Positions 1,998 to 52,696 of a stretch of 64,000 bases of DNA are shown in pieces. Each line of letters begins with the position of its first letter. Positions within the stretch are counted from its first letter, which is position 1. This DNA is from a virus. Lineage: Duplodnaviria > Caudoviricetes. The notes beneath the pieces are model-generated. The model made no database searches, had not been told where the DNA came from, and worked only from the letters and a program-made list of their open reading frames with translations. The DNA lies in the IMG/VR virus record IMGVR_UViG_3300023435_000009; one strand, written 5' to 3'. The translations under genes and the position numbers were made by a program.

Positions 1998-3413
1998 ATG
2001 GGGGGTTTTACAAACGTCTTGAAGGTCACCCGAATACTTTTTTCTAAAGACCTCAATGCAGGCAAGTTTGCCGTCTTAGAGGAACAAGCACGTCGATTAG
2101 GACAACTTCGTTCAGAAATATGGCAACGATTCGGATCCATAAATGGCGTTGGGAAATCGGATAGAGAAATCCGAGACGAATGGTTGCAACAGAAAAGAGA
2201 GTTTGATGTTCCAGCCAACGCCTGGAAAGAAACCCTGAGAGACGCTATCTCAGATGTCAGGGCATCCCGAGAAGCTGCAAAGGTCAAAGTACGAAAGACA
2301 ATACATTGTCACACAAAGGACACTGCCGAAAGAAAACATCGGTACACGCTTCTTAAGTCAGATAACTGGACAACTGACCCTTACCTGACTCGTGTCATGC
2401 GAAAGCATTGGAAGCGTGGACACAATCACACACATAATCAAATTATCGTTCGTGCCGACAAGTACAGGATCTTTGAGCTTGATAGTCGGGTTTGGCTCAA
2501 GATACCAGGGCTAACACCACGAAAAATGGTTACAATACCTTTGGACACAACCGTACACCCAACAGGTACTCTCCGACTGATCCTTCGGGACGATAGGGTC
2601 GAGATTCACTACCAAATTGAAGTCAAAAAGGAGAATCGTCACGGAGATACCGTACTAGGTGTGGACAAGGGGTACACAGAAGTCTTTGTAGACTCTGACG
2701 GAGAACACCATGGGAAAGAACTTGGGAAACTGTTATCCTCGGAGTCCGATTACTTAAAAACCAAGCATCAACGACGGAACAAGATCAAAGCAATTACTGA
2801 AAGGAAGCCACACAAAAGAGCGAACATCGAACGAAACAATCTTGGTCGAAAGAAATTGGATCGACGAGATCGGGTTGTGAAAGCCCATGTTCGGGACAAG
2901 GTTTTCAAGGCTGCTCATGCTGTCGTTGACAAGGCAGAGGTAGTTGTTGCTGAGGATCTGACTTTCCCCATTTCTTCGAGGAAATCTTACGGAAGGAATA
3001 TGAACAGGAGACTTTCTGCTTGGACCAAGGGTGTCATTGCGGAGAGTCTTGATTCCGTATCTCAGCGTAGAGGTTCTACGCTTGCACTCGTTAATTGTGC
3101 ATATACATCGCAAGTGGATTCTCGTTATGGTGTTCTTCGTGGACGTCGTAGAGGGGACTCATTTTACTGTTTTGATGGGGTTGTTTTGCACTCTGATGAG
3201 AATGCTGCACGAAACGTTTTGGCAAGACATTACGACTTTGAGATAGGTCGTTGGACTTCATACCGGGAGGTTCGGAGTATTTTGCTTGAACGGACTGAAT
3301 GCCATCGGTTGGGACTGCTCAACCAGGACACCAGTTGCAGACCTGAGGGTCTATCAACGGTGAGCGAATTACCTTTTGGACACATGTCCTACTTAAAAAG
3401 GAACAGACGCTAA
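1998..3413 (+). mobile_element. tnpB: TnpB RNA-guided nuclease #1 (IS607/IS200-605 accessory type), no transposase
   Basis: RuvC triad GVDKG / VAEDL / HSDENAA intact; AYTSQ motif; lower GC than flanks; probable start TTG 2019 (LKVTRIL, matches paralog at 37066). Confidence 0.88.
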
Positions 3414-6900: not shown

Positions 6901-7201
6901 CACCCGGTTGGCCCTGCGGGACACGGCGGACACATTCGACGCTCTGTTCAATTTGTACCAGAAGGGTTCGTTGGATATTGATGTGATCCTCGATCTTATG
7001 AATATCGATCCGGTGACCACCCAGGAGAAGCTCAAGCGGGATCTGTTCACGTTGAATGATGCCACCTTCAACGAGCTTCTCCGGGGCGTGTATGGCAAAG
7101 CTGGGGATCTGCTTGTGGACGGTACAACCATCATGGAGAAGATCGCAGAGAACCTGGGCCTCAAGTATGTGAAGCCCAAGGACGATGCCGGTCGTTTCTA
7201 A
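3950..7201 (+). CDS. Portal protein (about 564 aa after intein removal)
   Basis: Position after terminase; helical phage-portal-like sequence (FYRFFYDYEPFVGQAID; GVTEALLSGE); interrupted by an intein. Confidence 0.8.
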   Translation: MAKRTKSDDAVEVKAIPPRKGVRTGKPGKIVTSAMRMKTAMGLPTAGTMMGVGGNYYSPELSTDFLELPQSRDEQRNFYRFFYDYEPFVGQAIDQHTELPLSKLRLRMPVAKNRELAEKSMRFCERWAKKIKLLQKLMRITHEYHLMGEANIFCEDTNEEMPDEVRAQLIREIKEDGTLVERWDEYEDADERAVAWLKKNYKGWTAVRVLPPEQVKVESFPFTDEKLVELVPDAKSKAIVERARGGDPNAERIVNSMPTDIVQAILEGRNPVLNTDKDAGSFVYTLERKRSDYEPHGKSILQRCFLPGTPIWVSRGGVPQEVPVEDVQNGEMVLTHNGRFRSCQVGSRSVDEEITVIDVEGIQDPLRLTSEHRVMRIAEDGTEEWVEARHMRVGDLVREAHIAPESDDVPSVVDLVEWWQGRQLLSTKRGRPKLGLSETDRQLQVLSSTADSELTVCFEYLSDNRNHLRATEGLTRLLQWAHKLTAPVVKTQSEVALEAGVSARDVRVYAPRLRKEGLLKTEAVSLGRGKQVTWYPSTTSELPSVQTTITSPVSSINVTEEFCYLLGTWLGDGSIWTEKETLLNVHSLKWSLHDEGMRERIRGLIKECFPGVDIITGSLMSKKGHQGDVRVEDPLLARWFLEEFGHGFDGKHLPEWVFNLPVLMLRALLQGVVDTDGWVKKDGTTLTIDLRNKVLVQQLHLLANRVGFHTQVRKTIQRPHVWKRKWENQQGAQEKTYSYEERECWKVECCRSDDIRAWTEGGLKTPTLSVPQQKYTWCSRFKGGHLTRKVRDVRIRPYQGVVYSFGVVGDESHITGGITTHNCMRTLVFRDKVRQSLTSIASRHMTPYRLVYAEDMNEEQTEALREQVDLALQDPDYSIVTNFQVNWEEMGADQRLPDWSWVWDNTNQQLYAGLGVTEALLSGESSYSGDRISLEVINSRYMFLREVLQDLVEENFFEPMCRRMGFVEEDEDGNMQVIVPGLSFTRLALRDTADTFDALFNLYQKGSLDIDVILDLMNIDPVTTQEKLKRDLFTLNDATFNELLRGVYGKAGDLLVDGTTIMEKIAENLGLKYVKPKDDAGRF
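4859..6415 (+). mobile_element. Intein (519 aa) with LAGLIDADG endonuclease in portal
   Basis: N-terminus CFLPGT, block B LRLTSEH, LAGLIDADG motifs YLLGTWLGDGS and LQGVVDTDG, C-terminus TTHN|C. Confidence 0.92.
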
Positions 7202-7236
7202 GCCTATCCCTTCCCTCCCTTAGAGGGGGATCTATC

Positions 7237-10200
7237 GTGAAAAGAGCCGACGCAGAAAACGGGAAAAAGACGGGTGACCGTTCAGACGTTGGTCTGTTTA
7301 TCCCTCTTCCCGGAGATTTGGCATCCCAGTTTCCTGATCTAGGTAGCAACGACCAGTCGGTGCCTCACTCCACCTTCCTCTTCGTAGGATCCGTCCCGCA
7401 GGGCCGGGAAGAGCGGCTGCTGGAGGTGGTGAGGGGTGTGCTGGCAGAGTTGTCCGGTCCGGTCCGGGCGCAACTGGCGTCGGACATTGAGTACTTTGTA
7501 CATCCGGCCAAGCAACGTCGGGTGGCGGTCCTCCCCGTCCGTTTTAGCCATGATCTGGCGGCGATTCGATGGAAGCTCCGGGACGCTCTGGTAGATGACG
7601 GGTTTGATGTGGATGACAGCTTCCCATTGATCTACCGTCCCCATGTGACCTTGGAGTATCTTAACGACCTGGACGAGACCTATGTCGGGACTGTCCCGTC
7701 CGGTGGGTGGTCCCTCAACGGGATCGAAGTCTGGGGTCTGCCCCGTGTGGTGGAGGTCCCCTTCAGCAGCGTCAGCAAGTTGGCCCACCGGCATGTGGAG
7801 TCCAAGGCCCACCACCGTTCCGTCGCACTCATGAAGTTCCTTTCAGGGGTAGCCCGGAAGCTGGGCGTTGGTAACGACGTGTACGTCGTCGGTGGTGCCG
7901 TCCGGAACTTTGTGCTGGATCCCACGGGTCTGAAGTATCCGATTAAGGACATAGATGTCGTCATAGATCCTGTAGCGCTCCGCCGCCCTGACGCCTCCGA
8001 CTGGTTCGCCCAGAAGGTGAAGCGGGCCATCCCCGTGGACGTGAGCCTCGTGACTAACTCGTATGGGGTGAGCATTGTTACAATTACGGGGGATTGGATC
8101 CTGGATGGTGTGTCCATGGCTGGGGAAGTCATAGAGATCGCCAACGCCCGGACCGAGTCCTATGGCGGCACTGCTGGTAAGGGTTACAAACCCCATTTGG
8201 TGGAGCCTGCGACCATCGAAGAGGATGTTAAACGCAGAGACTTCAGTTTTAATACCCTCCTCTGGCGGATGCATGACCTTGCCAACGGCCCGGATCAAGT
8301 GGCGATTCTGGACCTGACGGGCTGCGGGATGAAGGATCTCCAGGATGGGTGGATGCGCTGCCCCTCCAAGCCGGACAGGACCTTCTCGGACGATCCTTCG
8401 AGGATGGTCCGAACTATAAAGTTCATGTTGAAATACGGTTTCAAGATCAGCTCCGAGGTCAAGGCGTCCATCAAGAAGAACGCCCCGAAGCTCAAGAACA
8501 TCCCACCGGGGCACCTGTCCAATATGATCATTGAGACTTTCTTCACGCCCGGTGTGGGAAAGAAGGCCCTCCTGGAGATGGACAAGCTGGGGCTGCTTGA
8601 GGTGACACGGGACATCGCCAGGAAGGATAAGAAGTTCCGGCAGGCTTTGGCCAACTGGGCGGACGCTCATGCCTCCGTGGAGTTCATCTTCGATCTGATG
8701 GATCTGGGGATGCCTTCCGGCAAGCGGTTGGGTTTCCTGAAGCCTGCACAGAAGGATCGTGTACGGGAGATCACCGTACAGATGGATGCCGATGGGTCGG
8801 ATGCCTTTGTGCGGCTGTTGGAGCAGCCGGGCAAGGTCCTCGACATGCCCGGACTCATTACAGAATATGGGTTCAAGGGTGCTGAGATCCGTGCCCTTGT
8901 AGAGGCAGCCCGCACGGCTCTGTTGGACGAGCCTCTCCTGGCCTCGTCCGGTCGGAAGTGGGAGGACAAGATCCGGCGCAGGCTGGGTAAACCTGCTGGG
9001 AAGACCGCTGGAAATGAGGCTCATGTGGTAGCCTCTAAGCCTGTTGTGATTGACGAGGTTCACCTCAAAAAGCTCAAGAAGGACTTCCTCACCTTCACCC
9101 GACAGATTAAGAAACCGAAGGACTACGACCAAGCCCGGTATATGGCTGACGCCTATACTCGTTGGCGGGTGCAGTTCGAGGATTTCATCAAGCGTCTCTG
9201 GAAGTACATGGATGGCCTTCACTGGAGGCATCCGAATTTGTTCTCTGAAAACGACAGAGACTACTGGCGTCGAGTCGTTGGGGAGGATACCTGGGTCCTT
9301 CAAACTGAGAACTTCCCGCTACAGCATCCTGATGACTACTGGACAGAGGAACAGTGTGTTGCTGAGTTTGAGCAGCGACGTGGGCCATGGGTCCGAAAAG
9401 TTCAGAGAGGGGCTCGGGAGGCTTGGTCCCGTCTTGATGACTTCGTCTCGTGGATGGAGACCAACCGTCTCCAAGCGCTACAGACAGAGGGGGACAAGGT
9501 CACACTTGAGTACCCCGAGGTTTACAAGGAGAACATCGACGGTTTCCAGTTGACGTTCAAGGGAATCGAACCGGATGACCGGGCGGAGGTTAAGGGGTTC
9601 TTGGCAGGGCTGAAGAGGTATAAGGCACTGGCTGCGAAGCGTATGCCCCTTCTTCTTCGGAGGAAACTCCCCATCGTCGTGAACAGTATGGGTGAGGTGG
9701 GGCTTGAGTGGGGTGGTCAGTACCACACCCGTTACATTGATTTCAACCTTGCCTCGTCCAGTAGCTCAGGGATACAGAATCGCACTGTTCATGTCTTGGC
9801 TCATGAGATGGGGCATCATATCTTCAAGTCTCTTGGCAGTAAGTCCCGGAAGTTCTGGGACACCCTCATCCGGGGGGACATGGAGCCGTTGGATCTGAAA
9901 AAGATTTACCCCCTGATGAAGGCGGGGGAGGATCTTCAGTGGCTTGCTTTCGACATCGAGGAGAAAGATCCAATCCTTGCCCTCCAGTTAACAGGGGTGA
10001 GCGAGGACTGGCGATGGAAGCACAATGTCCCGACTAAAGAGAAGGTCAAGGAGTTCATTGACGGCGGTGAGGTGCAGATCCATGTTCCCAAGCGCCCCAT
10101 CACCTACTACGCCTCAAAGAACCCAGAGGAAGCCTTCTGTGAGGTGGTCGGGCTTCTGGTTGCCAATGGCCCTGGGTCGGTGGACAACGAGATCCTCCAC

Positions 10201-13200
10201 TGGCTTCGGGTGATCGTACCGTCAGCCAAGATCGCCAACCTCCAGGGTGTGGTGGAAGTCCCGAAAAACACCCACCCAGTCAAGGTGGAGCCGCCCAAGG
10301 CCAAGAGGAAGCAGTTTCCCTTCGTAGGGTACATCGACTTCCAGGGCATCAAGATTGACGTTGAGAATAAGCAGGGGGACGTGCGGAAGGGTGTCAGCCC
10401 TGATGGTGAAGAGTGGGAAACCCACATGTTCCACCATTATGGCGAAATTCGGAATACTGAGGGTACAGATGGCGATAAATTAGATGTTTATGTGGGGGAC
10501 AATCACGACTCTTCCCTGGCGGTCGTTGTCCACCAGCAGGATCCTGACTCAGGCAAGTTCGATGAGGACAAGGTCATGCTCGGCTTTGATTCGGTCGAGG
10601 AGGCCATCGGAGCCTACAAGAAGCAGTACGACCAGCCTGGGTTCTACGTTGAGGGCGAGCACCTGGAGATGCCCATAGGGCAGTTCTGGCGCTGGGTCAA
10701 TGAGGACCGGAACAAGGGTAAGAAGGTCAAGGATGCTGTTGTGCATACAGCGGCCCAGCACGCCCCCTCTACGGCCCCGACGTGGTTTCCCGAGGTAGAG
10801 GGGCGGGTCACAGACATAGCGGCGTCAGGGGACAACGACGAGGGTTGGAAGGCAGCGTCCCAGCGGAGGACTGCCGAGCATAATGACGATTACCAGAGAC
10901 GGGAGAAGGTGCTGCCGGAGGACCTAGACTTTGCCCGGAAGCACCATCTGCCCTTAGAAGAGGATCAGTATTGGGGCACTGTGGTGCCCCTTAAAGCGCT
11001 TTATACAAAGCGTCCCCAATACCACATTTTTGGCATGAACTTAGGTGATCAGAAGCGGTTTGTTTTCGCATCCATTCCTTTGTCCTTGTTAGTCCCGGCT
11101 CAAGAAACTGTCTCGTTGATAGGGCTGCATCGCTACACCGAAGGAAATGTGCGGAGTGACAAGGGTGTACCAGAAGTAGTGCTCTGTGAGTCAGCTTTTT
11201 TTGTCATGGAGGGGCACACCCGGTTGGCCGCAGAGAGGCTCAGAGGGCACTCACGGGCCGAGGTGAAGCTGTTCCTTTATGACGGTAAGAAGTTTCGGAA
11301 GCCTACAGATGAGGATCTGCCCTCATCTGTGCGGCTCCTTAAAAGGAGGCGGAGAGCAACCGCCGCCCAGCGGATAGCAGATCGTTACGTTGAGGGCCTG
11401 CAGATCAACCTGAACGTGGGTGACCCCGTTTTCTACGGGAAATGGAAGTCTTCGCCAGGTACCATCAAGGACTTCAAAACGGATCCCAAGAGCGGTGACC
11501 CTGTTGTGACGGTCGAACCTTATCCGAAGGGACGCAAGAAGCCGAAGGATCTCAAGCTCCTCAAGATCAGGGAGCGGCAGCCCAAGCCAGAAGAGAAGAA
11601 GGCTGGGATGCTGGAGCCGCCTCCGGCGATGGTGAAGTCTGTCCTTGAGTGGGTCATGGCCGTGACACAGAGCACTAAGGCGTTCCGGGCCAAGGAGGAT
11701 TTGGCAAAGGCTCAGGATGTCCTTCAGGCGTTGACAGCACTCAAGCGGGACATGACGAAGCAGCGGGGTGTTCTTGAGGACGCCGTTGCGGATCCGAAGG
11801 TCGGTGTCCGGGCCGAGTACGCAGCCCTTAAGCAGTACGTGGAGACCCTCTTTGAGGACAACCGGAGGACGGCGGTCTTTGTGCAGCGTCTCGTGTGGGG
11901 GCCTCCCAAGTTCAAGAAGTTCACTGAGGCCCACAACAAGGGTGACCTGCCAAGGTATGTGAGGTCAGTCGGTGACGAGGTAGACGAGGCCCTTGCGGAC
12001 AGGATGAAGGCCGTTAAGGGACAGGTCCAGAAGCTCCGGGCCGGGGCCGGTGGTCCCTCAAAGGTGCAGCCAATAATGCCCGGAAAGGAACTGGTAACCC
12101 GGATCCCCGTAGATCTGCGTGGGTGGAAGTACGAGGGGCAGGTTACCGTAGAGAAGGGGGTCAAGGGACTTGTAGATGTCATCACCAAGGCCATGGCCCG
12201 TAAGACGGACATCGATGAGGAGTCCCGGAAGTTCTTTGACGAGTTGATGGAGGGCAACAAGAAGCAGTGGCAGTCTATCGCTGTAAAGTTGGACCCGAAC
12301 CAGACCCCTCACGGGAGATGGCAGTCCGCAACCAAGATGCTGACCCTGAAGTTCGGTGGTCCCGAGAAGGACGCCGCATGGTACCGCCCCCTCATCGAAC
12401 ATGAGTTGCGGCACGTTGCACAGGATCTGATCAATTTCTCCGAGGGTCTGTATGACAGAGGGGGCCGACCTTCTCGTAAGATGCTTACTCCAGACTACAC
12501 CCAGCAGGACGAGGATGCGGCGAGGCAGAAGCTGAGGGCCGTGGGCATCGATCCACGTCAGGTAGCGATTCATCATCTGGACGATGTGGAGTTCTACACG
12601 GACCTGGCAGACGCTGTCGGAGAGTACAAGAGGCAGCAGCCAAAGTTCGACCATCTCCCTCGTAATGAGACCATCAGGTTCTTTGTGGGTGGGAAGGCCA
12701 ATCCTGAGGTGGCACAGGAACTTCGCAGTTTGCGGATGCACCCCCTCCCCTTCTTCACGACGTTGAAGAGGGTTCCTTCCGCAAGGGGTAAGTACCAGAA
12801 GGCTGTGAATGAACTGCTTAAGGCCACGGGCGGGTCCGCTACCAGGGTGGCTCTCCGTTACCTCCAGGGGAAGCAGGCTGGCGTGTTCCAGGGGCCACCG
12901 GCGCTGTTGAAGACCATCCAGGAGTGGGCGCTGGCCACCTACGCCGGACACATCCTCGCTGGGGTTGAGACAGACCTAGAAACGATCCTTGACGCCAAGG
13001 GGCCGATCAAGAGGGCCATCCAGGACATGGGCAAGGGATACGATGAGGTCACTAAGGCGGGCAGTCTTTCCGTTGGCGGATCCTTCAAGTTCCCGATGAC
13101 GGACACCTTCGGCGGTTCCAGTAGTCTCTCCAAGAGTGTCTGGGGGGTCAAAAGGACGGGGGAAGACGTCTACCTGATCGGGAAGGGTGACCGTTCCGTT

Positions 13201-16200
13201 TCCTGGAAGCCCCAACAGTTGCCCTGGCAGTGGGGTCGTGGACCGTGGACCCTTGAGGAAGTCAAAAAGCATCTGATGCCCTACATCAGCAGGGCGACGC
13301 AGAGGATGCGGTCGAAGCTGGATCAACCTGTTGTTGACCCCAACATGCCCAAGGCCGTGGAGTTAACCCTCCTGAAGCGAAAGTGCCTCCAGTACACGAC
13401 TAAGGCCAAGCATTACTCCGGGAAGGCCACCACTAAATTCAAGCTGGATCTGTCCGGTTGGAAGTACCTACCCAATCCCCGAGAGGCCGAAAAGCACATC
13501 AAGGATGAAGAAGGTTGGGATGTGGTGAAGGTGGTGCTGGACTTCAAGGGGAGCCAGACAAAGGGCGGCTACTGGTCCCTCAAGGAGAGGACCCTGGACG
13601 TAGAGATCGGGGCCGGGGCCACCAGCCACTATATCCGAACACCAGAGCAGGCCCGGACGGTGTCTCTGTTCGAGACAGGTATAACGCAGATCACAGGGAC
13701 TTGTCGTCATGAGGTCCAGCATATTGGACAGGATGCCCTGAGGCTCGCTAAGGGATTATCGGAGGACGCAGGTCTCCCTGGCCGCACTCTACGGAACCCG
13801 GACTTCACCCCCGAGGGGCGGAAGCTGCACGTCCCTGAGGGGGATGCTCCTTCTGGGAAGGTACACCCGCTTCGGGATGTGGAGTTCCATACCCGGATCC
13901 AGGACGAGATAGAGAAGTTCTCTCGCTTTGTGCGGAAGGGTGTTGTCGCCAAGGCTAAGATCAAGGAGGCCCTCCATATCTGGGTGGGGGCGTCCCCCGA
14001 GAATGAGATGAAGGATCCAGACGGCAAGGTCATCATGACCACGCAGCAGTTCTTCTACTCCCTGCGGAAGTACGAGAAGGGGAAGTGGCAGAAGGCCGTC
14101 GATGAGTTCAGGAAGGGTCTTATGCGGAAGGGTCTCCGGATCAGTTCTGAGGACATCCAGTCGGCCATGACGCAGAGGGTCAGGCAGGACCAGGAGTACT
14201 TTGCCTCGCTCTTGGGCACTGTCGCTCAGATCCAGTCCGAGATCGATGCTCATCCCGATTATTACTCTACATCGGACAAGAACAGGAAGCTCTGGTTGGC
14301 GTGGAAAGATCTGGCTTTGCTAGGGGATCGGCTGGCCAGGGCCGTGTTGGATCAGAAGAGCATCCCGCCGGGCAAGAATAAAGCCTTCGAGTTGGCTGCT
14401 CGTGCCTTCATCTCTATACGGGGGACTCCCCGTGACATTGAGAAGTGGATGGTGAAGAACAAGCGGCACATCAACCTTCTCAACGACACCGTAGACTGGC
14501 CAGACAAGTCAGAGGACGAGAAGCTCAAGGTGGGGGCCTTTACGGTACACAACACCCTTGGGTTGGAAGGGGCGGACCTTGACCGAAGTAAGAAGAACGT
14601 TCAGAAGGCTGAGTCGCTGATTCGTCGGATGCCCTTTCCGAAGGGACTCAAACAGGTTCTTTATGGGGACGTTTACATAGTAGCTCGGCTAAACAAAACC
14701 AAAACGTGGGCCTTCTACTACCCTCGGGACGACAACGTCTATGTCAGGGCTGACACCAAGGGTGTGTTGGGAGAGACTCACAGCCTTATTCACGAACTGG
14801 CTCATCGCTATTGGGAACAGTTCGCATCCGTTTCCAAGAAGCACGCCTGGATCCGCCACCACGCCCATATGTCCGGCAAGAGCATGCCCGCCGAGAAGAT
14901 GCCGATGCCGAACGTTGGGGAGACTCTCCCCCTCAAGATTCCGGGTGCCCCTCGGGGGTTCGAACCTGTGGTTTCCCATGTCCATGCCGGGAAGTACTGG
15001 TTCGATGTGCCCTCCAAGGATGGGAAGACGACCAGGACGATGAACTACCCCGTCCACGAGATGGCGAAGTTCCTTTATGACCGGGACGAGAGGACAAAGC
15101 GGCGGGAGACCTTCCCGACCCCCTATGCAGCGAAGAACGCTGAGGAACACTTCTGTGAATCCACGGCATTGAGGGCATTGGGCAAACTGAAGGGGTCAAA
15201 CTTGGATGAGTACGACCGAATCTGGGGTGGCTCAGGGGGGCGGGTGGCCAGTCAGGACTCATCAGTAGAGGCCAAAGTGGACTTCTCTGGCACTCGTTGG
15301 GTAGTGGCACCCCCGTCCAAGTTGGACGAGGCACAGGCTGAAACCGTTTGGCAGGTTTATCATACATCCTATGGGAACCTTGGTGAACACATCTCAAACC
15401 TGTCGGAGCTGTTGTCCAAGTACCAGTTGTTCTGGCTCGTGGATGTAGACGGGGATGAGAAACCGGATGCGTTCATTGCCTATAAAAAGACCCCAGCGGG
15501 TAAGAAGATAGGTGTTATCGGTTCTGACGGGTCTCCGTTGGCCAAGCGACTAGTGGTACGGAAACTCCTCCAGTTGTTTCAGGGCAACGGGTACTACGTC
15601 GAGGCTTCGGGACGACCGGCACAAATGCTAGACTCCGCTGGGGTGCCCCATGTGACGGATCAGGCTGATGTGGAGGCCGTGATGGCTCCGAAAAAGATCC
15701 ACTGGTTGGGGGACGGTAAGTACACCAGGGCCATTGGTGGTTTGGGGACGAAGGAGAAACGCTTGTACGGACATCCCAGGATCCCACGAGCACGTAAGCA
15801 GGCACGTCGGTTGGCCACCCGCTGGCTCAGGTCCTCTGCGAGCATCCCGGCCCAGCAGATTGCAGCACGTTATCTGGAGGCCGGTGCCTACCCCACAAGC
15901 CGTTTGGTGGAGGGTCCACTCATTGACGGGCATATCCCACCGAGAACCCCACAGGGACGGCCTCCGGCGTATTTATACCGCTCTATGCCGGTGGCGGAGT
16001 ACGAGGCAGCAGTGTCTCGGGGTCAGATGCGGGGGCGTCCGCTCCACGCCGCAGGCGAGCCTGTTTTCTACACCCTCAACCCAGGCGAGAACGTCCTGGT
16101 CGCAATAGAGTACCGTGACCGAGATGGCTGGGACTCCAAGGTGGGTATGGGAGGCAGCACCATTTACGCCATCACCCACGACGCTATTCCGATGTCGAGA

Positions 16201-16335
16201 GTTGCTGAGTTGGCACGGGGGGCCAAGGGGGATCTGAAACGGTGGAAGTCCGCTGCCAAGTTCAAGGACAAGAAGAAGGTCAAGAAGCAGGATGGCGGCG
16301 AGATGACCGGAGGTAAAGCTGATGTGTTCTTCTAA
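7237..16335 (+). CDS. Giant multidomain (polyvalent) protein, 3032 aa
   Basis: Domains read by motif: 2H phosphoesterase (HST 7366, HVT 7642); class II CCA/poly(A) nucleotidyltransferase (GGAVR, DID, RRDF, FSDDPSR); HExxH peptidases (9802, 12400, 13708, 14791); phage pyrophosphatase (YGEI..DGDKLDVYVG..DEDKVMLG); ParB-like (EGHTR); SH3/KOW-like; GNAT-like. Confidence 0.85.
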   Translation: MKRADAENGKKTGDRSDVGLFIPLPGDLASQFPDLGSNDQSVPHSTFLFVGSVPQGREERLLEVVRGVLAELSGPVRAQLASDIEYFVHPAKQRRVAVLPVRFSHDLAAIRWKLRDALVDDGFDVDDSFPLIYRPHVTLEYLNDLDETYVGTVPSGGWSLNGIEVWGLPRVVEVPFSSVSKLAHRHVESKAHHRSVALMKFLSGVARKLGVGNDVYVVGGAVRNFVLDPTGLKYPIKDIDVVIDPVALRRPDASDWFAQKVKRAIPVDVSLVTNSYGVSIVTITGDWILDGVSMAGEVIEIANARTESYGGTAGKGYKPHLVEPATIEEDVKRRDFSFNTLLWRMHDLANGPDQVAILDLTGCGMKDLQDGWMRCPSKPDRTFSDDPSRMVRTIKFMLKYGFKISSEVKASIKKNAPKLKNIPPGHLSNMIIETFFTPGVGKKALLEMDKLGLLEVTRDIARKDKKFRQALANWADAHASVEFIFDLMDLGMPSGKRLGFLKPAQKDRVREITVQMDADGSDAFVRLLEQPGKVLDMPGLITEYGFKGAEIRALVEAARTALLDEPLLASSGRKWEDKIRRRLGKPAGKTAGNEAHVVASKPVVIDEVHLKKLKKDFLTFTRQIKKPKDYDQARYMADAYTRWRVQFEDFIKRLWKYMDGLHWRHPNLFSENDRDYWRRVVGEDTWVLQTENFPLQHPDDYWTEEQCVAEFEQRRGPWVRKVQRGAREAWSRLDDFVSWMETNRLQALQTEGDKVTLEYPEVYKENIDGFQLTFKGIEPDDRAEVKGFLAGLKRYKALAAKRMPLLLRRKLPIVVNSMGEVGLEWGGQYHTRYIDFNLASSSSSGIQNRTVHVLAHEMGHHIFKSLGSKSRKFWDTLIRGDMEPLDLKKIYPLMKAGEDLQWLAFDIEEKDPILALQLTGVSEDWRWKHNVPTKEKVKEFIDGGEVQIHVPKRPITYYASKNPEEAFCEVVGLLVANGPGSVDNEILHWLRVIVPSAKIANLQGVVEVPKNTHPVKVEPPKAKRKQFPFVGYIDFQGIKIDVENKQGDVRKGVSPDGEEWETHMFHHYGEIRNTEGTDGDKLDVYVGDNHDSSLAVVVHQQDPDSGKFDEDKVMLGFDSVEEAIGAYKKQYDQPGFYVEGEHLEMPIGQFWRWVNEDRNKGKKVKDAVVHTAAQHAPSTAPTWFPEVEGRVTDIAASGDNDEGWKAASQRRTAEHNDDYQRREKVLPEDLDFARKHHLPLEEDQYWGTVVPLKALYTKRPQYHIFGMNLGDQKRFVFASIPLSLLVPAQETVSLIGLHRYTEGNVRSDKGVPEVVLCESAFFVMEGHTRLAAERLRGHSRAEVKLFLYDGKKFRKPTDEDLPSSVRLLKRRRRATAAQRIADRYVEGLQINLNVGDPVFYGKWKSSPGTIKDFKTDPKSGDPVVTVEPYPKGRKKPKDLKLLKIRERQPKPEEKKAGMLEPPPAMVKSVLEWVMAVTQSTKAFRAKEDLAKAQDVLQALTALKRDMTKQRGVLEDAVADPKVGVRAEYAALKQYVETLFEDNRRTAVFVQRLVWGPPKFKKFTEAHNKGDLPRYVRSVGDEVDEALADRMKAVKGQVQKLRAGAGGPSKVQPIMPGKELVTRIPVDLRGWKYEGQVTVEKGVKGLVDVITKAMARKTDIDEESRKFFDELMEGNKKQWQSIAVKLDPNQTPHGRWQSATKMLTLKFGGPEKDAAWYRPLIEHELRHVAQDLINFSEGLYDRGGRPSRKMLTPDYTQQDEDAARQKLRAVGIDPRQVAIHHLDDVEFYTDLADAVGEYKRQQPKFDHLPRNETIRFFVGGKANPEVAQELRSLRMHPLPFFTTLKRVPSARGKYQKAVNELLKATGGSATRVALRYLQGKQAGVFQGPPALLKTIQEWALATYAGHILAGVETDLETILDAKGPIKRAIQDMGKGYDEVTKAGSLSVGGSFKFPMTDTFGGSSSLSKSVWGVKRTGEDVYLIGKGDRSVSWKPQQLPWQWGRGPWTLEEVKKHLMPYISRATQRMRSKLDQPVVDPNMPKAVELTLLKRKCLQYTTKAKHYSGKATTKFKLDLSGWKYLPNPREAEKHIKDEEGWDVVKVVLDFKGSQTKGGYWSLKERTLDVEIGAGATSHYIRTPEQARTVSLFETGITQITGTCRHEVQHIGQDALRLAKGLSEDAGLPGRTLRNPDFTPEGRKLHVPEGDAPSGKVHPLRDVEFHTRIQDEIEKFSRFVRKGVVAKAKIKEALHIWVGASPENEMKDPDGKVIMTTQQFFYSLRKYEKGKWQKAVDEFRKGLMRKGLRISSEDIQSAMTQRVRQDQEYFASLLGTVAQIQSEIDAHPDYYSTSDKNRKLWLAWKDLALLGDRLARAVLDQKSIPPGKNKAFELAARAFISIRGTPRDIEKWMVKNKRHINLLNDTVDWPDKSEDEKLKVGAFTVHNTLGLEGADLDRSKKNVQKAESLIRRMPFPKGLKQVLYGDVYIVARLNKTKTWAFYYPRDDNVYVRADTKGVLGETHSLIHELAHRYWEQFASVSKKHAWIRHHAHMSGKSMPAEKMPMPNVGETLPLKIPGAPRGFEPVVSHVHAGKYWFDVPSKDGKTTRTMNYPVHEMAKFLYDRDERTKRRETFPTPYAAKNAEEHFCESTALRALGKLKGSNLDEYDRIWGGSGGRVASQDSSVEAKVDFSGTRWVVAPPSKLDEAQAETVWQVYHTSYGNLGEHISNLSELLSKYQLFWLVDVDGDEKPDAFIAYKKTPAGKKIGVIGSDGSPLAKRLVVRKLLQLFQGNGYYVEASGRPAQMLDSAGVPHVTDQADVEAVMAPKKIHWLGDGKYTRAIGGLGTKEKRLYGHPRIPRARKQARRLATRWLRSSASIPAQQIAARYLEAGAYPTSRLVEGPLIDGHIPPRTPQGRPPAYLYRSMPVAEYEAAVSRGQMRGRPLHAAGEPVFYTLNPGENVLVAIEYRDRDGWDSKVGMGGSTIYAITHDAIPMSRVAELARGAKGDLKRWKSAAKFKDKKKVKKQDGGEMTGGKADVFF

Positions 16336-17152
16336 CTTTATCGGACAGGTTTATTCCTTGCATGATCCTGTGACACAGGAGTTGCGTTATGTTGGACAAA
16401 CAACACACACACTGGAACATCGTTTGAAACAACACTTGAAGCAGTTGAAAAAAAGCACACACAAAAACAACTGGATTCGGTCTCTTCTTCCTAGTCGACC
16501 TTTGATTCGGCACGTTTGTTTCGCTGCCTCTCAGTCTGAATTGGATCTTCTGGAGATAGGCCACATCGCAAAAACAAAAACCTCTGGGTGTCGTCTGACT
16601 AATGCAACTACAGGGGGGAGGGGAGGGAGGCATTCTGCTGAGACCATCGCAAAAATGAGAGTGGCACACACAGGAAAAGTGTTTTCACAGGAGGCTCGAC
16701 AAAACATGTCCAAGGCAAAAAAGGGTCATCCTGTTTCGGAAGAGACCAGACGTAAAATTGCTGCCGCAAATACAGGACATGTGCCATCGCTGGACACTCG
16801 AACCAAATTAAGTTTAGCACTTCTTGGCCATACCGTTACAAGTGAGACGAGACAACGCATCTCAGAGGGTAACAAGGGCAAAGAGCGTACTGCTGCTTTT
16901 CGAAGACATCTATCGAAAATTAACCTTGGAAAGAAACACACGGAAGAGTCTAGGCTTCGAATGTCGGGGCGGGTGATGCCTGAGGAGACCCGACAGAAAA
17001 TTTCTAGGGCATTGAAAGGGCGAGCAAAAGAGGGGATGTCCGAAGAAACCAAGCGTAAGATTTCGGATGCCAAAAAAGGAAAGACACTGTCCTTTGAGAC
17101 CAGGCAACGAATGTCAGAGGCGCAAAAAGTCCGATGGGCAAAACAAAAATGA
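16322..17152 (+). mobile_element. Free-standing GIY-YIG homing endonuclease with NUMOD3 repeats
   Basis: VYSLHDP..RYVGQT..RLKQH N-terminal domain; about seven H/V-SxETRxKIS repeats; AT-richer than flanks. Confidence 0.85.
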
Positions 17153-20100
17153 AGACCTTTTTTGATGATGAAAGGGTGGTGCGCCGGATTGCAACCCTGT
17201 ACGTATGCCGGGTTGCACAGGATCACAAATACAAAAAAAGGCACAAGTCCCCTGGCGGAACTAAGATATACGAGTACAGCGACCGTCATGTGAACGACCG
17301 GAACAAGGGCAAAGCCCAGAAGGTTGAAAAGCTTCGGCATGGCATCACCAAGCTCCGGGGTCAGGTCCATAAGGATCTCAAGTCCAAGGATGAGAAGACC
17401 CGTGCAACGGCCCTGGCTGTTGGTCTCATGGACGCCACCTACGAAAGAATTGGTAATCCGACTTCTGCCAAAGAGGGCCATTTTGGGGTCACTGGATGGA
17501 AGGCCCAACACATCACATTTTCCGGGGGCACAGCCACCATCAAGTACGTTGGGAAATCCGGCGTGAAGCATGAGAAGGTCATCAGCACCCCAGGTTCTGT
17601 GGCGGCGCTCAAGGCTGCTGTGAAGGGTAAGAAGCCCGGAGACACCGTGGTGGACGCCTCAGCAGAGGATGTGAACGGATACCTCAAGCCCTTCGGTGTC
17701 ACCGCCAAAGATATTCGTGGCTTTCATGCTAATACAGAGATGCAAACCCGGCTCAAGGCTATCCGGTCCAAGGGCGGCAAGCTGCCCACCGACAAAAAGG
17801 AGCGAGAGAAGGCCCTCAAGGAGGAGTTCAAGAAGGCCCTGGCTGAGACAGCCGAGGCGGTAGGGCATGAGGCAGCTACGTTGAAGAGCCAGTACCTTGT
17901 GCCAGGTTTGGAGTCCGATTTCCTTAAGGATGGAACGGTCAACGACAAGATGGTGAAGAAAGGCTCAGAGTTGGCACACCGCTGGTTGAAGACGGCCATC
18001 ATCAACATCAACAACGCCACCGATGGTCCCGAAGGAGATCTGATGTTGAGGGGCGACTACGGGCTCCAGTCCAGCCTGACTTACTACGAGCAGGCGATCA
18101 TGCAGGATTTGATCATCCACCACCACCCGATCCTGAACACTCCCGAGGGGTATACGCTCAGGGGGCACAAGGTCGGCCCCAGTGCTGTGTGTGAGTTGAT
18201 GGGAGCCGGATACCTGGAGGACCATGGCGGGGAGATATACTTGTCCCCTATGTACGAAGCCAAGCAGAAGCTCTACCGGACAGCCTCTTCATCCAGACTG
18301 ATCCTGTTGTATGAGCGGCACTACCCACCCGAGGACAGGTCCATCGAGCATTACGCTGCTTGGCGCAACAGCCTGACCCTCCCGATGGCCCGGACGGCAG
18401 CCTATGACATCATCAGACACTGCCCCCATTGTCAGTGCGTCCTGCACGACGGTCCTCGCTACCATGAGCACTGCGACGACTGTGGGTACGACGTAGATTT
18501 CCCAGGCGGACGGGAGCGTCTGAAGGACGGGGAATGGACACCCATCCCCGAGGATGACCCCCGGCTGGTCCTGTTCAAAGAGAAGAAGGCAACGCAACTG
18601 GATGCTTTCGAGAAGATGTGGCGGACGGCAACCAAGACCCACGGGGAACGTGAGGACGAGGAAGCCGAGCGGTTGCTACGCCCCGAGCCTAAGAAGAAGC
18701 CCCCCCGGAATGATCTCCGCCGGGAGCAGATGAACACGGACAAGGACAAGGACACAGAGTCGGAGGGTGCTGACGGGGACAAGGACCTCTCTTTGAATTA
18801 CAAGCGGATTGCCCTGCGCTGGCTCGCTGCGGCTGGTGAACACAAGCCCGGCGAGGTGTGGCAGACGGAGTCCGGTTGGGCAGGGCAGAACCCAGACGGT
18901 GTCCCTCATACCTTCAAGGATCGGACGAAAGCCGAAGCCTACGCCAAGGGTCAGTCCGAGGCCCCTGAGGACGAGGAGAAAGCTGCCCCTGAGGAGGAGC
19001 AGTCCCCTGAGACCACCCCTCAGCCTGAGGAACCGAAGAAGAAGCCGAAGCCCCGGAAGGATCCTGAGCAGGTTCGATTTGACCGGAAGGTCCAACGGGA
19101 GGTGAAGAACCTGAGGGCAGAACGTAAGGGTGTCAAGGACGCCAAGGTGGAGCTTCGTCAGGCCAAAAAGGATCTCAAGGAGGCTCGTGCAGAACTCAAG
19201 GCAACCCAGAAGGGAACGCCTGGGTACGTCATAGCTAAGGATACAGTCGACACTGCCAAGGAGTTGGTGGACCAGGCCCAGGAACAGTTGGACACGGCAA
19301 CGGAGTCTTTCGAGGCCACCAAAAAGCGGGTGGAGGAGATAAAGTCAGAGCGGGTGGAACGCTACCCCGACAGCAATACGGAGTTGGGCCGTATTCGTTT
19401 GCTCCTTCGAGAGTTTGATCAGACGTCAGATGATGACAATGACGGGAGTATGAGGGCCGAGACGCTTGAGGATAAACTCTCCAAGTACGACGTTGCTTCT
19501 CAGGAGCAGGCAGCCTCTGCTTTCCAGAAGGAAAGCACCTCCTTGGCCCATCAGGAGTTAACCCCTGAGTTGGTTCAGGAGATCGTGGCAGCCGAGAAGC
19601 AGCTTAAAAAGAAGGGCCTGTCCGCCGAGGTTTTCGGGGAGTTGACTGCCCGTGTGATGTTCGGGCACAGCATCCTGGCGAACCCCACCAAGGTTTCGCC
19701 TATGCGTGGAGTCGAGGTGGATGGTGCGGAGCAGGCGAAGATCGCCAGAGACTCCTACGATCACTACTCTAAGCTCAATCCCGAACTCCGGGCCAACGCA
19801 TTCCGGCAGGCAGCGGAGGAACTCAAAAAGCACCCGGACGATTCACCCGATAGTGTCCATCTGTCCCGTGTGGTGGATGGTCTCTACCTGGCCTCAGTAG
19901 CGGCTGGGGATGATGACTCCGTGAGGGAGACGGACGGGAAGAGACTCATTCCTGAGCCGTCCGGCATCTTCAAGGCCCTGGTTAAGATGCAGAAGGGCGA
20001 CGACAGTTTTGGGAGCGAATCAGGTGACCTTGTAGATCTCATGTCTACTGAGTTCTATGGACCCAAGGGAAGGGCTGCACTGCGGACCCGGATCTCAGAA

Positions 20101-20718
20101 TTGGATGACAATGACCTGACCAACCTGTTTACGGGAGGGGATCAGGAACTGGATCGGATGATCCAGGACGCCCTTTCCAAAATGACAGAGCCTTGGCAGC
20201 GGGAGTTGCTCAGGGGTCTGATGCAGGATCTGACCCTGGACTCAATGACGACCCAGCATGCAATCCTGACGAGTCAGGCGGGGGCTGAGGAAGGCCCCGA
20301 AACTCTGAAAAACCAGGGCACCCGGTCCATGCCTAAGACCCCGGAGGAGATGGACTACACGCTGACGGACTATCGGCGTCGGGCAGCAGATGCTGCTTCG
20401 GATGAGATGGAGGCTCTCTTGGCGTGCCTGAGGGGGCATAAGGATTCTGAGACCGCTCGTCAGGCGTGTCAGGAGAAGGCAAATGCGTACCGGATCAAGT
20501 CCCACGCTGGGTTCCTGCAACTCGTAACTGATGAGTTTGGTATCCGAGATGAACTAGATCCTTTCCTGGTTCAGTTACGAACGATGTTGGATCGTCAGGA
20601 TCTCGCAGAACTTGATTTCAAGTTTGTTTCTGAGGGAGCAAAAACGGCGTTTACACGGAAAACAGTCCGTGCAGTTCAATCCTCTGCCTATACGGATGAC
20701 ATAAAGGCGAGGGGCTGA
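17149..20718 (+). CDS. Multidomain protein with N-terminal DNA topoisomerase IB domain
   Basis: Topo IB catalytic pattern ERIGN, GKSG, KDIRGFH, GH..ATLKSQY (Tyr at 17893); then a small Cys cluster, a coiled coil and a helical C-terminus. ATG 17149 overlaps the endonuclease stop. Confidence 0.8.
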   Translation: MKTFFDDERVVRRIATLYVCRVAQDHKYKKRHKSPGGTKIYEYSDRHVNDRNKGKAQKVEKLRHGITKLRGQVHKDLKSKDEKTRATALAVGLMDATYERIGNPTSAKEGHFGVTGWKAQHITFSGGTATIKYVGKSGVKHEKVISTPGSVAALKAAVKGKKPGDTVVDASAEDVNGYLKPFGVTAKDIRGFHANTEMQTRLKAIRSKGGKLPTDKKEREKALKEEFKKALAETAEAVGHEAATLKSQYLVPGLESDFLKDGTVNDKMVKKGSELAHRWLKTAIININNATDGPEGDLMLRGDYGLQSSLTYYEQAIMQDLIIHHHPILNTPEGYTLRGHKVGPSAVCELMGAGYLEDHGGEIYLSPMYEAKQKLYRTASSSRLILLYERHYPPEDRSIEHYAAWRNSLTLPMARTAAYDIIRHCPHCQCVLHDGPRYHEHCDDCGYDVDFPGGRERLKDGEWTPIPEDDPRLVLFKEKKATQLDAFEKMWRTATKTHGEREDEEAERLLRPEPKKKPPRNDLRREQMNTDKDKDTESEGADGDKDLSLNYKRIALRWLAAAGEHKPGEVWQTESGWAGQNPDGVPHTFKDRTKAEAYAKGQSEAPEDEEKAAPEEEQSPETTPQPEEPKKKPKPRKDPEQVRFDRKVQREVKNLRAERKGVKDAKVELRQAKKDLKEARAELKATQKGTPGYVIAKDTVDTAKELVDQAQEQLDTATESFEATKKRVEEIKSERVERYPDSNTELGRIRLLLREFDQTSDDDNDGSMRAETLEDKLSKYDVASQEQAASAFQKESTSLAHQELTPELVQEIVAAEKQLKKKGLSAEVFGELTARVMFGHSILANPTKVSPMRGVEVDGAEQAKIARDSYDHYSKLNPELRANAFRQAAEELKKHPDDSPDSVHLSRVVDGLYLASVAAGDDDSVRETDGKRLIPEPSGIFKALVKMQKGDDSFGSESGDLVDLMSTEFYGPKGRAALRTRISELDDNDLTNLFTGGDQELDRMIQDALSKMTEPWQRELLRGLMQDLTLDSMTTQHAILTSQAGAEEGPETLKNQGTRSMPKTPEEMDYTLTDYRRRAADAASDEMEALLACLRGHKDSETARQACQEKANAYRIKSHAGFLQLVTDEFGIRDELDPFLVQLRTMLDRQDLAELDFKFVSEGAKTAFTRKTVRAVQSSAYTDDIKARG
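20677..20692 (+). promoter_or_regulatory. Candidate phage promoter (AAT-N8-TATA)
   Basis: CAATCCTCTGCCTATA, 15/16 identical to 43729-43744; upstream of the head operon. Confidence 0.5.
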
Positions 20719-20785
20719 GTGCCCAGCGCTTACCTCCTTTGGGAGGAGCTAATCCGGTCGGCAGACCACATGAGGAGGAATTCCG

Positions 20786-21622
20786 ATGACTGAAATGACG
20801 AAGAAGGGCGCTCAGGTAGTGACCAATGATCTGGATCGGGTTGCGACCCTGTTCCAGCAGGATTGGGCCACGCTGGGTATTCCGCAGAAGCTGGCCGTGG
20901 ATTTCGCATACCGTTGTGATCTTCTGAGCGACGCCGTCGAGAAGAGAGCTGGGGTGCCGAAGACCGCAGCGCCGGACTTCAACCCTGAGGAAATCGGGGA
21001 GGAGAAGGCCGGGCCACTCGAAGACGAGCTGGACGAGGCTTTCATGAAGGGCGAGTTCACCCAGCAAGAGAACCGGGAACTGCGTGAGCGGTACCAGGAC
21101 GGCGACCTGGGCATCACCCCCAACCTCGACCCACAGGCCCCCGCCAGCGGCAAGCAGGGTTTCGAGCAGGTCGGCAGGGACAGCCTGAGCAGCAGGCTCG
21201 CAGCGCTGTGTACCCGTGTGCAGGGTCATGCCACCCGGTGTGGATCATCTGATCCGGCCCTTGCCGGACGCATGTTCCGGCTCGCCAGTGCCCTCCTGGA
21301 CGTGCAGCGGGACGTGCTGACGGGGAAGACCTCGGCGGACCACGCTGTTCGGACGCTCCAGGCCAGCAATCTCCTGAACACTGACAGCCCCTCGGACAAG
21401 TTCGCAGCGCTGGTCGCCCATGCAACCAGGGTGGCGAAGAAGTCCGAGGACGAAGACGAGGACGTTCCTGACGAGGGCAAGGAAGCCGGAAAGATCCCAC
21501 CCCAGTTCAAGGAATTCCTCGATAAAAAGAAGGACGAGAAGGGCGACGAGGACAAGGATGACGACAAGGCCGACGACAAGGGCGACAAGAAGGCCCACGG
21601 CTACAACCTGTTCGCCCAGTAA
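20786..21622 (+). CDS. Hypothetical head-associated protein (278 aa)
   Basis: Shine-Dalgarno GAGGAGG; acidic/lysine tail; first gene of the protease-scaffold-MCP operon. Confidence 0.7.
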   Translation: MTEMTKKGAQVVTNDLDRVATLFQQDWATLGIPQKLAVDFAYRCDLLSDAVEKRAGVPKTAAPDFNPEEIGEEKAGPLEDELDEAFMKGEFTQQENRELRERYQDGDLGITPNLDPQAPASGKQGFEQVGRDSLSSRLAALCTRVQGHATRCGSSDPALAGRMFRLASALLDVQRDVLTGKTSADHAVRTLQASNLLNTDSPSDKFAALVAHATRVAKKSEDEDEDVPDEGKEAGKIPPQFKEFLDKKKDEKGDEDKDDDKADDKGDKKAHGYNLFAQ

Positions 21623-21632
21623 GGAGCCCAGC

Positions 21633-22214
21633 ATGACATCCACCAAATCCGCAGCTTACGTGGATTTCCAACAGAGGGCTAAGGAGTTCTCTGTCGGGGA
21701 TGAGGTGTCACCGCTGTTCTCCCTCCAGGTCATCGTAGGACGTGTCGTAGCCGTGTGGCCCGCCATCGGAATGGTGGACGTTGAGTGGCCGCACGGCTCC
21801 GAACGAGTCCCCGTAGAAGACCTCCAGCGGGGGAATGGTTCCGAGTTTACCCCACCCGAGACGGACAGCGCTAATGTCCCTGGTGGTGAGGGTACGGTTT
21901 CAGTCCCCGGTGGTCCCAAGGACGCTGTCACCAGGGTCGCCACTGCTTATCTGAAAAAGTCCCTTTACTGGGCAGCCCGTGATCGTCACTACAAGGCAAC
22001 AGCCGAGGAGATCACCAGCGGGCAGTTCAACTGTCCCAAGTGCAAGGGTGCCTTCCTTCGTCCTGCCACGTACAAGCGGGCGGAGGGTGTGAGTGATCGT
22101 CTGCTGGCCTGTCCGGAGTGCCTGTTCCTCATCAAGAGGAGCGCCCTGATAGGGCATCCTGACTACATTGACGATGGGATTGACGGTGTCCAGGCGGATA
22201 GGAAGGTGGTCTAA
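21633..22214 (+). CDS. Hypothetical head-cluster protein with SH3-like and zinc-ribbon parts (193 aa)
   Basis: AAGGAG SD then ATG 21633; CPKC...CPEC; contains RVATAYL-KKS. Confidence 0.7.
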   Translation: MTSTKSAAYVDFQQRAKEFSVGDEVSPLFSLQVIVGRVVAVWPAIGMVDVEWPHGSERVPVEDLQRGNGSEFTPPETDSANVPGGEGTVSVPGGPKDAVTRVATAYLKKSLYWAARDRHYKATAEEITSGQFNCPKCKGAFLRPATYKRAEGVSDRLLACPECLFLIKRSALIGHPDYIDDGIDGVQADRKVV

Positions 22215-52654: not shown

Positions 52655-52696
52655 ACCTCTGAGGATGTGACAGAAGGGTCTAACTGGAGGTTTTCG

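Follow-up and report, generated by a model that had tools for sequence, protein, structure and literature searches.

A polyvalent-type multi-module protein gene, apparently split by a GIY-YIG endonuclease cassette, between the portal and capsid genes of a huge phage

The DNA considered here is a stretch of 64,000 nucleotides (the window) from a virus of the Caudoviricetes (IMG/VR record IMGVR_UViG_3300023435_000009). Its main subject is an open reading frame (ORF) on the plus strand at 7237-16335, P0001, which a preliminary description made from the sequence alone had taken for a whole protein of 3032 residues lying between portal and head genes. The location is borne out, since the frame is open over all 3032 codons, with the portal gene 5′ of it and a head-protease-like gene and the major head protein gene 3′ of it. 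The start is a GTG located 7 bases 3′ of the Shine-Dalgarno-like GAGGGGG, and the N-terminus is homologous to the place where the proteins of relatives begin. The completeness of the protein is not borne out: its last part, a type IB topoisomerase (TopIB), appears to have been split off by a homing endonuclease gene and now lies in a second ORF, P0048. We conclude from the comparisons given below that P0001 is the truncated front of a longer protein ending in TopIB.

Module limits were set by the extents of independent homologues and delimit 11 modules in P0001 (Table 1), in agreement with the earlier estimate of about eleven. Conserved catalytic motifs were read from family alignments of 20-30 sequences. 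Self-BLAST of P0001 detected no internal repeat, and no family was found for modules 5-11 when ten segments were searched against Pfam and NCBIfam and ten free-standing homologues against Pfam. The names proposed earlier for the modules fare unequally: the nucleotidyltransferase, the inorganic pyrophosphatase and the GNAT domain are firm, the 2H phosphoesterase and the four HExxH modules stand by their motifs, the ParB-like and SH3-like names are leads, and the ART-like tail is not confirmed.

Module 1 carries H-S-T at residues 44-46 and H-V-T at residues 136-138, and these conserved motifs support its assignment as a predicted 2H phosphoesterase. In module 2, GGAVRN, DIDVV, RRDF and DDPSR correspond to the expected GGxVRD...DxD, RRD and EDxxR-type motif D, all intact; the module scores 50.6 bits with Pfam PolyA_pol (cut-off 23) and 9.6e-26 with NCBIfam pcnB, and it matches poly(A) polymerase (2.3e-14) as well as CCA enzymes in the PDB. 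These matches confirm a predicted class II CCA/poly(A) nucleotidyltransferase, in which CCA and poly(A) specificities are not separable by sequence. Module 4 is likewise confirmed as a predicted InPase, the inorganic pyrophosphatase of polyvalent proteins (PF18823, E 1.4e-37, 129 bits vs a cut-off of 26.8). The predicted structure of module 10 confirms a GNAT fold: the AlphaFold model has a mean predicted local distance difference test (pLDDT) value of 91.2, and all 50 of the 50 PDB matches listed for it are GNAT enzymes, with a probability of 1.0 and a template-modelling (TM) score of about 0.5-0.6, the best being 3fnc (1.4e-5) and RimI 5isv (2.3e-5). A PDB profile search with the GNAT-like alignment found nothing significant, and the β4-α3 segment has an invariant D-G in a G-S-D-G-S loop that departs from the acyl-CoA-loop consensus Q/R-x-x-G-x-G/A.

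Four HExxH motifs are present, as expected from the four zincins or peptidases of the preliminary description, but the modules that carry them are not of one kind. By hhalign they belong to two unrelated families, HExxH...E and HExxHxxQ, each represented twice, and a single family uniting them is rejected. The HExxH...E family includes modules 3 and 9. The catalytic half of module 3 aligns with the module-9 family at a probability of 96% (E 3e-9) and the whole of module 3 has 30% identity (E 7e-34) to a 485-kb uncultured phage; no Pfam family above cut-off was found for it. In the module-9 family (30 sequences) H180, E181, H184 and E298/E302 are invariant, which is the pattern of gluzincins. 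One module-9 homologue matches Peptidase_Mx at 1.3e-4, and the profile of the zincin family found nothing significant in the PDB. At the level of motifs, modules 3 and 9 are read as paralogous gluzincin-type zincins and predicted peptidases.

The HExxHxxQ modules 7 and 8 are related to each other only through their family alignment, inside which module 7 aligns; it also matches repeated modules of the relatives P0002, P0003 and P0014. In that alignment H-E-x-x-H-x-x-Q is invariant and is followed some 50 residues later by near-invariant H, D and E, and there is an N-terminal box (A)G-x-F-E-x-P-P-A-M. The AlphaFold model of module 8 (pLDDT 85.4) has a predicted core that passes from a sheet to a long helix with HExxH and then to a later helix opening with a D-V-E-F box, the element order of zincins. 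Fold searches with it gave best values of E 0.09 (Foldseek, PDB), Z 6.4 for a helical part (VIA wide), 0.013 (AFDB) and TM ≤0.26 (Atlas), with faint Peptidase_M78 and DUF1570 rows and with the listed VIA rows mostly a helical hairpin; in BFVD, three phage proteins matched at E 2e-5 to 4e-4 and a 'structural protein' of Serratia phage BF at 0.02. It is most aptly treated as a previously undescribed phage family, for which these searches gave no relative of solved structure. A free-standing copy of 460 residues lies at 10001-11383 of a 213-kb contig (L005); it is surrounded by small genes, has its strand to itself, and is close to an EF-Tu-like gene and at a long distance from head genes.

The remaining modules are assigned more loosely. 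For module 5, language-model look-alikes are ParB_N clusters (0.94), with 161 of 256 features shared vs 170 typical of true members; the segment alone gave no hidden Markov model match in Pfam or NCBIfam, no PDB sequence match and no word-index homologue, and ParB-like is a lead only. Module 6, of about 55 residues, is present in all 13 aligned relatives, and its PDB profile search returned the Spt5 KOW domain at E 0.2-0.5, none of it significant, so that an SH3-like or KOW-like nature is plausible but unproven. Module 11 has a free-standing homologue of 140 residues that is 61% identical, and its language-model look-alikes are ART-clan families only (0.85-0.89). It has Y-R-S and F-Y-T motifs and an acidic position that varies (D here, E in the homologue). 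With the tail segment alone there was no Pfam match, no PDB sequence match and no word-index homologue, and its hhalign comparison with a mixed ART-like alignment from relatives, a poor alignment, was negative.

The evidence for the split is found at the 3′ end of P0001. P0048 is a TopIB by Pfam (Topoisom_I, 89.8 bits), with S-Q-Y as the region of the active-site tyrosine at residue 252, and it matches TopIB structures in the PDB (5.8e-11), including the variola (2h7f, 1.5e-9) and vaccinia (1a41, 1.2e-6) enzymes. By pairwise comparison it aligns collinearly with the C-terminal portions of 13 relatives. Residues 3006-3024 of P0001 align with the first residues of the TopIB module of relatives, and P0048 has its own full copy of the beginning of this module with a border tag, a short conserved peptide described below, before it. 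The DNA of the stub is 86% identical to the uninterrupted site of a relative exactly up to the first base of the cassette, where a ribosome-binding site and the ATG of the endonuclease follow. The GC content falls to 0.44-0.49 between 16300 and 17270 compared with about 0.60 in the flanks. A group I intron around the endonuclease was considered and rejected, since no Rfam intron matched at E≤5 and the non-ORF bases number only 13 + 113. Taken together, the stub alignment, the duplicated start, the drop in GC and the lack of an intron model indicate that a free-standing GIY-YIG cassette split the gene and supplied a new N-terminus for the downstream half. As the cassette provides this half with its own start, the protein is presumably now made as two polypeptides. 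The endonuclease has relatives of at most 37% identity in IMG/VR, none of them beside a topoisomerase or a polyvalent module.

It is conceivable that a self-splicing intron or protein trans-splicing rejoins the two halves and that a single protein of about 4,200 residues is still made, the more so as this phage has inteins in its terminase and portal genes and relatives have inteins within this very gene. We consider this very improbable: no Rfam intron model matches, and an intron core would have to fit into the 13 bases that precede the endonuclease ORF and the 113 that follow it; the upstream ORF reads into the cassette and then stops; the downstream half begins with a start of its own and a second copy of the module beginning, neither of which would be required by a precise intron or intein; and no intein domain matches at the junction.

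Table 1. Positions of the modules, border tags, split-site features and neighbouring genes in the window; assignments of modules are predictions.
Feature	Residues	Positions	Strand	Remarks
P0001, front part of the split polyvalent-type protein		7237-16335	+
Module 1, 2H phosphoesterase	~15-175	7279-7761	+	both H-x-T motifs
Tag (2H / nucleotidyltransferase)	181	7777-7797	+	18.2 bits
Module 2, class II CCA-adding/poly(A)-polymerase-type nucleotidyltransferase	~195-585	7819-8991	+
Module 3, HExxH...E zincin, first copy	~598-995	9028-10221	+	HEMGH 856, NPEEAFCE 962
Module 4, InPase	1031-1154	10327-10698	+
Module 5, ParB/Srx-like candidate	~1240-1365	10954-11331	+	EGHTR instead of DGHHR
Tag (ParB-like / KOW-like)	1379	11371-11391	+	19.0 bits
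Module 6, small β module, KOW/SH3-like candidate	1392-1450	11410-11586	+
Module 7, HExxHxxQ copy 1	~1465-1865	11629-12831	+	HELRH 1722
Tag (HExxHxxQ copy 1 / copy 2)	1870	12844-12864	+	24.0 bits
Module 8, HExxHxxQ copy 2	~1885-2310	12889-14166	+	HEVQH 2158
Module 9, HExxH...E zincin, second copy	2349-2665	14281-15231	+	HELAH 2519, NAEEHFCE 2634
Module 10, GNAT-fold acyltransferase	2676-2852	15262-15792	+
Two tags (GNAT / tail module)	2858, 2874	15808-15876	+	12.6, 18.6 bits
Module 11, C-terminal 'ART-like' candidate, ~125 residues	2884-3007	15886-16257	+
Native stub, first 19 residues of the TopIB module	3006-3024	16252-16308	+
AT-richer inserted cassette, ~957 bases		16309-17265	+	ribosome-binding site, endonuclease ORF, replacement start with tag and stub
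GIY-YIG/NUMOD3 homing endonuclease ORF		16322-17152	+	Pfam GIY-YIG 31 bits, NUMOD3 84 bits
P0048, TopIB module and conserved C-terminal region	1-1194	17134-20718	+	1194 residues
Tag inside P0048	558	18805-18825	+	25.7 bits
Terminase large subunit		3-1967		open at window start; intein-splicing remnant
TnpB-like (Cas12f1-like TNB) gene		1998-3413		immediately after terminase
Portal gene, 1083 codons		3950-7201		PHROG portal 7e-23; LAGLIDADG intein
Head-protease-like gene		22214-23791
Major head protein gene		26122-27000		phrog_2522 9e-47

A chimera of assembly, which would make P0001 a fusion artefact, is so improbable that it can be set aside, and the check for misassembly suggested earlier has been made without refuting the ORF. 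The identical protein of 3032 residues is called on 14 contigs, the longest of 528,260 bases, from several samples, the listed runs being all salt-lake metagenomes of 2017-2019. A contig of 21,380 bases with a depth of 55 spans 7000-21000 with zero differences, and in a contig of 2019 the endonuclease cassette is joined to its flanks on both sides, with no alternative joint present, so that the junctions are recovered in another year as well. The relatives share the same kind of architecture. The endonuclease-free form was not seen among the contigs of four runs, contigs being assemblies that lose rare variants.

Searching for long relatives yielded 14 giant proteins, 1,681-4,511 residues in length and encoded on contigs of up to 521 kb. 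They are about 60% identical to residues 1-590, that is, the 2H and nucleotidyltransferase modules, and differ in the middle; in 13 of the 14 the same polypeptide runs on into TopIB and the tail that P0048 matches. The comparison of module content across related phages that had been proposed gives a pattern in which the constant parts of the family are the 2H module with the class II CCA/poly(A) nucleotidyltransferase and TopIB with its long conserved tail, and interchangeable cassettes lie between and around them. In two relatives the locus runs from the terminase through two small genes to the portal and the giant gene, and from there through two more small genes, a protease-like gene and one other gene to the capsid gene; the gene in the window lies likewise between the portal and the protease and capsid genes. 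The polyvalent reading proposed earlier is upheld by this position within the head module, found in the window and the two relatives, together with the InPase score.

In relatives, too, the locus is a target of selfish elements. P0007 and P0012 have inteins (LAGLIDADG_3, Intein_splicing) inside the CCA-type nucleotidyltransferase module. P0002, a protein of 4047 residues on a 59-kb contig with RNA ligase, AdoMet decarboxylase-like and ART-PolyVal domains, contains no more than the first 60 residues of the TopIB module and is followed after 12 bases by a topoisomerase ORF of 2561 residues, a split without an endonuclease.

Residues 1870-3032 of P0001 match 1,448 representative proteins at E≤1e-3, and every module within them also occurs free-standing or in other combinations, with free-standing copies on phage-like contigs of 213 kb and 26 kb. 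Module 9 is the commonest among the listed matches of the representative search and is often a free protein of about 350 residues.

The borders between modules are marked by short peptides. The preliminary description had claimed unusually clear processing signals there; what is borne out is a set of conserved border motifs, which are candidate signals for cleavage. The long tag, of the R-V-A-x-R-Y-L type, is defined by the pattern [RKQST]-[IVLT]-A-x-R-[YWFH]-[LIVMKQ] and occurs in 30 copies in P0001, P0048 and the 14 relatives, compared with 0.57 in shuffles. With a weight matrix built from relatives and free-standing modules alone, for which the 95th percentile of shuffled sequences is 10.8 bits, sites in P0001 are placed at residues 181, 1379, 1870, 2858 and 2874 (12.6-24 bits), and all five are at module borders. 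In 149 representatives sharing modules with residues 1870-3032 there are 71 long tags vs 1.9 expected, and 26 of the 56 tag-bearing representatives have it within 40 residues of a terminus. The 32 classical InPase-bearing polyvalent proteins have 3 vs 1.6 expected, which is no enrichment. Within the window the long tag also occurs in the plus-strand ORFs 33358-33753 and 52667-54340 and has zero occurrences on the minus strand. In one of these two ORFs it is located 8 residues before the stop and in the other, a lysine-rich protein of 557 residues, it is mid-protein; neither ORF belongs to a known family. The codons of the tag vary freely, implying selection for the peptide rather than the nucleotide sequence, and a DNA recombination site is ruled out for the same reason.

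The other borders bear a short tag, K/R-x-A-[GASN] (K-T-A-G type). Of its 10 copies in the chain, 6 fall within linkers, which make up 10% of the chain as we classed it (p 2e-4, with windows drawn after the motifs had been seen). The protease domain of the head protease closes with K-A-A-S (residues 296-299), which does not vary among relatives whose sequences, 59% identical overall, diverge immediately after it; a second short tag is at residues 432-435 in the C-terminal extension. A short-type tag is also found at residues 25-28 of the capsid protein, which is 91% identical among three phages, so that its conservation there is uninformative. The distribution of the tags suggests a signal for cutting by the head protease or an address for the capsid. 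In a bolder and still tentative form of this proposal, a pool of more than 1,000 modules in a clade of huge phages would share a peptide address, the long tag or the short one, that serves both for prohead targeting and as a protease cut mark, allowing plug-and-play loading of the capsid with arbitrary enzymes; modules could then be strung together, split or exchanged without loss of delivery.

The border motifs might instead be conserved helical spacers inherited with the cassettes, the protein working uncut as a multi-enzyme scaffold, much as the virion RNA polymerase of phage N4 stays whole. The position following the tag is variable, which leaves no evident scissile bond, and the tag is predicted to be partly helical in both models. 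Such an explanation has to be reconciled with a tag that is under selection at the peptide level and varies in its codons, is kept at the extreme ends of free-standing modules, where a spacer is superfluous, occurs in unrelated proteins of the same phage and falls where the models are less confident than in the module cores. It is possible, though we regard it as doubtful.

The reading that we prefer, with a probability of roughly 70%, is that P0001 and P0048 are the two halves of an ancestral polyvalent protein of about 4,200 residues in the head block of a phage of about 528 kb, and that the protein, now split, is packaged, cut at its tags and delivered with the DNA. The mechanism is modelled on knowledge of polyvalent proteins (PMC5512222) and of head-packaged proteins. 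Both halves would be synthesised late and loaded into the prohead, where the head protease or the zincins of the protein itself may cut at the border tags to give single modules, which would be released into the cell with the DNA. The 2H, nucleotidyltransferase and InPase modules would then mend or rebuild the 3′ ends of RNA or tRNA, or destroy cyclic-nucleotide alarm signals. Repair of RNA 3′ ends is favoured, with the 2H module opening 2′,3′-cyclic phosphates, the nucleotidyltransferase rebuilding the end and the InPase pulling the reaction; in the alternative role of this front trio, the 2H module would destroy the cyclic-nucleotide alarm signals. In one relative the polypeptide also includes an RNA ligase domain (PF09414), in keeping with RNA repair; such an association was not seen for polyvalent 2H domains by Iyer et al. 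(PMC5512222). TopIB and the ParB-like module would act on DNA, and the GNAT module and the zincins may modify or cut host proteins. In this sequence of events the modules would be injected and may serve in counter-defence.

The same modules might be made, late or early, as a polyprotein that is cut in the cytoplasm of the infected cell and never packaged, the locus reflecting co-regulation or history. They do occur free-standing among ordinary small genes far from head genes, and CCA-type nucleotidyltransferases and TopIB are ordinary replication and RNA-maintenance functions in jumbo phages (PMC7824862). We judge this unlikely, as the position between portal and protease is kept in three phages even though the giant proteins share only the first ~590 residues (~60%) and differ in the middle, and the border tag is also present in other proteins of the structural region. 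This type of InPase is, moreover, fused to portal and minor head proteins. Residues 1033-1157 are homologous to the InPase domain that ends the portal protein of PDB entry 9b41_L (765 residues, 7e-17), which is direct structural evidence that an InPase domain can belong to a virion, and module 4 also matches PHROGs named minor head or virion structural protein.

Several results weigh against packaging, tag cutting and delivery of a polyvalent protein, or against the enzymes that it assumes. The Pfam match of module 1 (2_5_RNA_ligase2, E 5.6e-5) scores 23.7 bits and is under the 27-bit cut-off; its match to TIGR02258 (E 7e-5) is also under the curated cut-off. Neither MPTase-PolyVal nor any other Pfam peptidase family was above cut-off for the four HExxH modules and their homologues. 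The whole 449-residue model of module 8 has no match at E≤1e-3 in the PDB, AFDB clusters or Atlas, and the HExxHxxQ module is a candidate zincin and, by its motifs, a putative hydrolase. None of the capsid, scaffold-like and protease proteins contains the long tag, and the presence of the short tag in the same three is near the chance expectation for so short a tag. The linker windows used in counting the copies of the short tag were chosen with the motifs already in view. Finally, some free-standing module genes are outside head modules, so these families are not always encoded with virion genes.

In the wider region, the endonuclease gene is followed by the 1194-codon TopIB ORF, two small genes and the head-protease-like gene, and then by an acidic scaffold-like gene and the major head protein gene. 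The portals of relatives have 562-567 residues, and the portal in the window is longer because of its LAGLIDADG intein. Directly after the capsid gene, an ORF of 855 codons (27154-29721) combines helix-turn-helix motifs with a LAGLIDADG endonuclease (76 bits) and an N6/N4 DNA methylase. Further selfish genes, a second TnpB-like transposase and another homing-endonuclease gene, are found at 37066-38457 and 45644-47017, and at least seven selfish elements lie within this 64-kb structural region.

If the protein is indeed packaged and cut, it would show that the largest phages bring ready-made RNA-end repair, pyrophosphatase, topoisomerase, acyltransferase and protease activities into the cell, and the short peptide tag would become a candidate signal for capsid loading and cleavage. 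Several of the module families now defined have hundreds of members and no Pfam model, one of them being the HExxHxxQ module of about 430 residues. The endonuclease split may be viewed as a natural experiment, in which a cut at a module border is tolerated provided that the downstream half gains a new tag.

Polyvalent proteins are encoded beside virion genes, and their delivery with the DNA and their processing by peptidase domains have been proposed (Iyer et al. 2017, PMC5512222). The present protein resembles them in joining many unrelated enzyme domains in one polypeptide, with InPase as the hallmark together with 2H, GNAT, ParB-like and metallopeptidase-type modules, and in the location of its gene beside the portal and head genes. 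It differs from them in its constant parts, a CCA-type nucleotidyltransferase and a TopIB with a long tail, neither of which was found to be discussed as a polyvalent domain in PMC5512222 or in a 2021 survey of jumbo phages (PMC7824862). It differs also in peptidase-like modules that are outside MPTase-PolyVal, though they may function in a similar way, in a tag that is specific to its clade and in a gene split by an endonuclease. Judged by its sequence, the protein shows the testable defining features of polyvalent proteins, and it would be delivered as is proposed for them. Literature searches found no description of this protein family.

Three other known systems offer partial parallels. 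Poxviruses carry a TopIB in their particle, and the enzyme described here is likewise a small, sequence-related TopIB; unlike the poxvirus enzyme, it is part of a multi-enzyme protein of a phage head block and would be packaged as such. DarB and DdrB of phage P1 and the internal proteins of phage T4 are head-packaged, ejected and directed against host defence, with short terminal targeting peptides that are removed by the head protease. These are single-function proteins with one N-terminal signal, whereas here the candidate signal recurs between about a dozen fused modules. The nrdA gene of Aeromonas phage Aeh1, split by mobE, is a gene in pieces produced by a free-standing homing endonuclease; as in the present locus, the endonuclease gene lies inside the coding sequence with neither intron nor intein, and the parts are expressed separately. 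Unlike in nrdA, the cut here falls at a module border, so that re-association of the parts is unnecessary, and the cassette brings a tagged replacement N-terminus, leaving a duplication of 19 residues.

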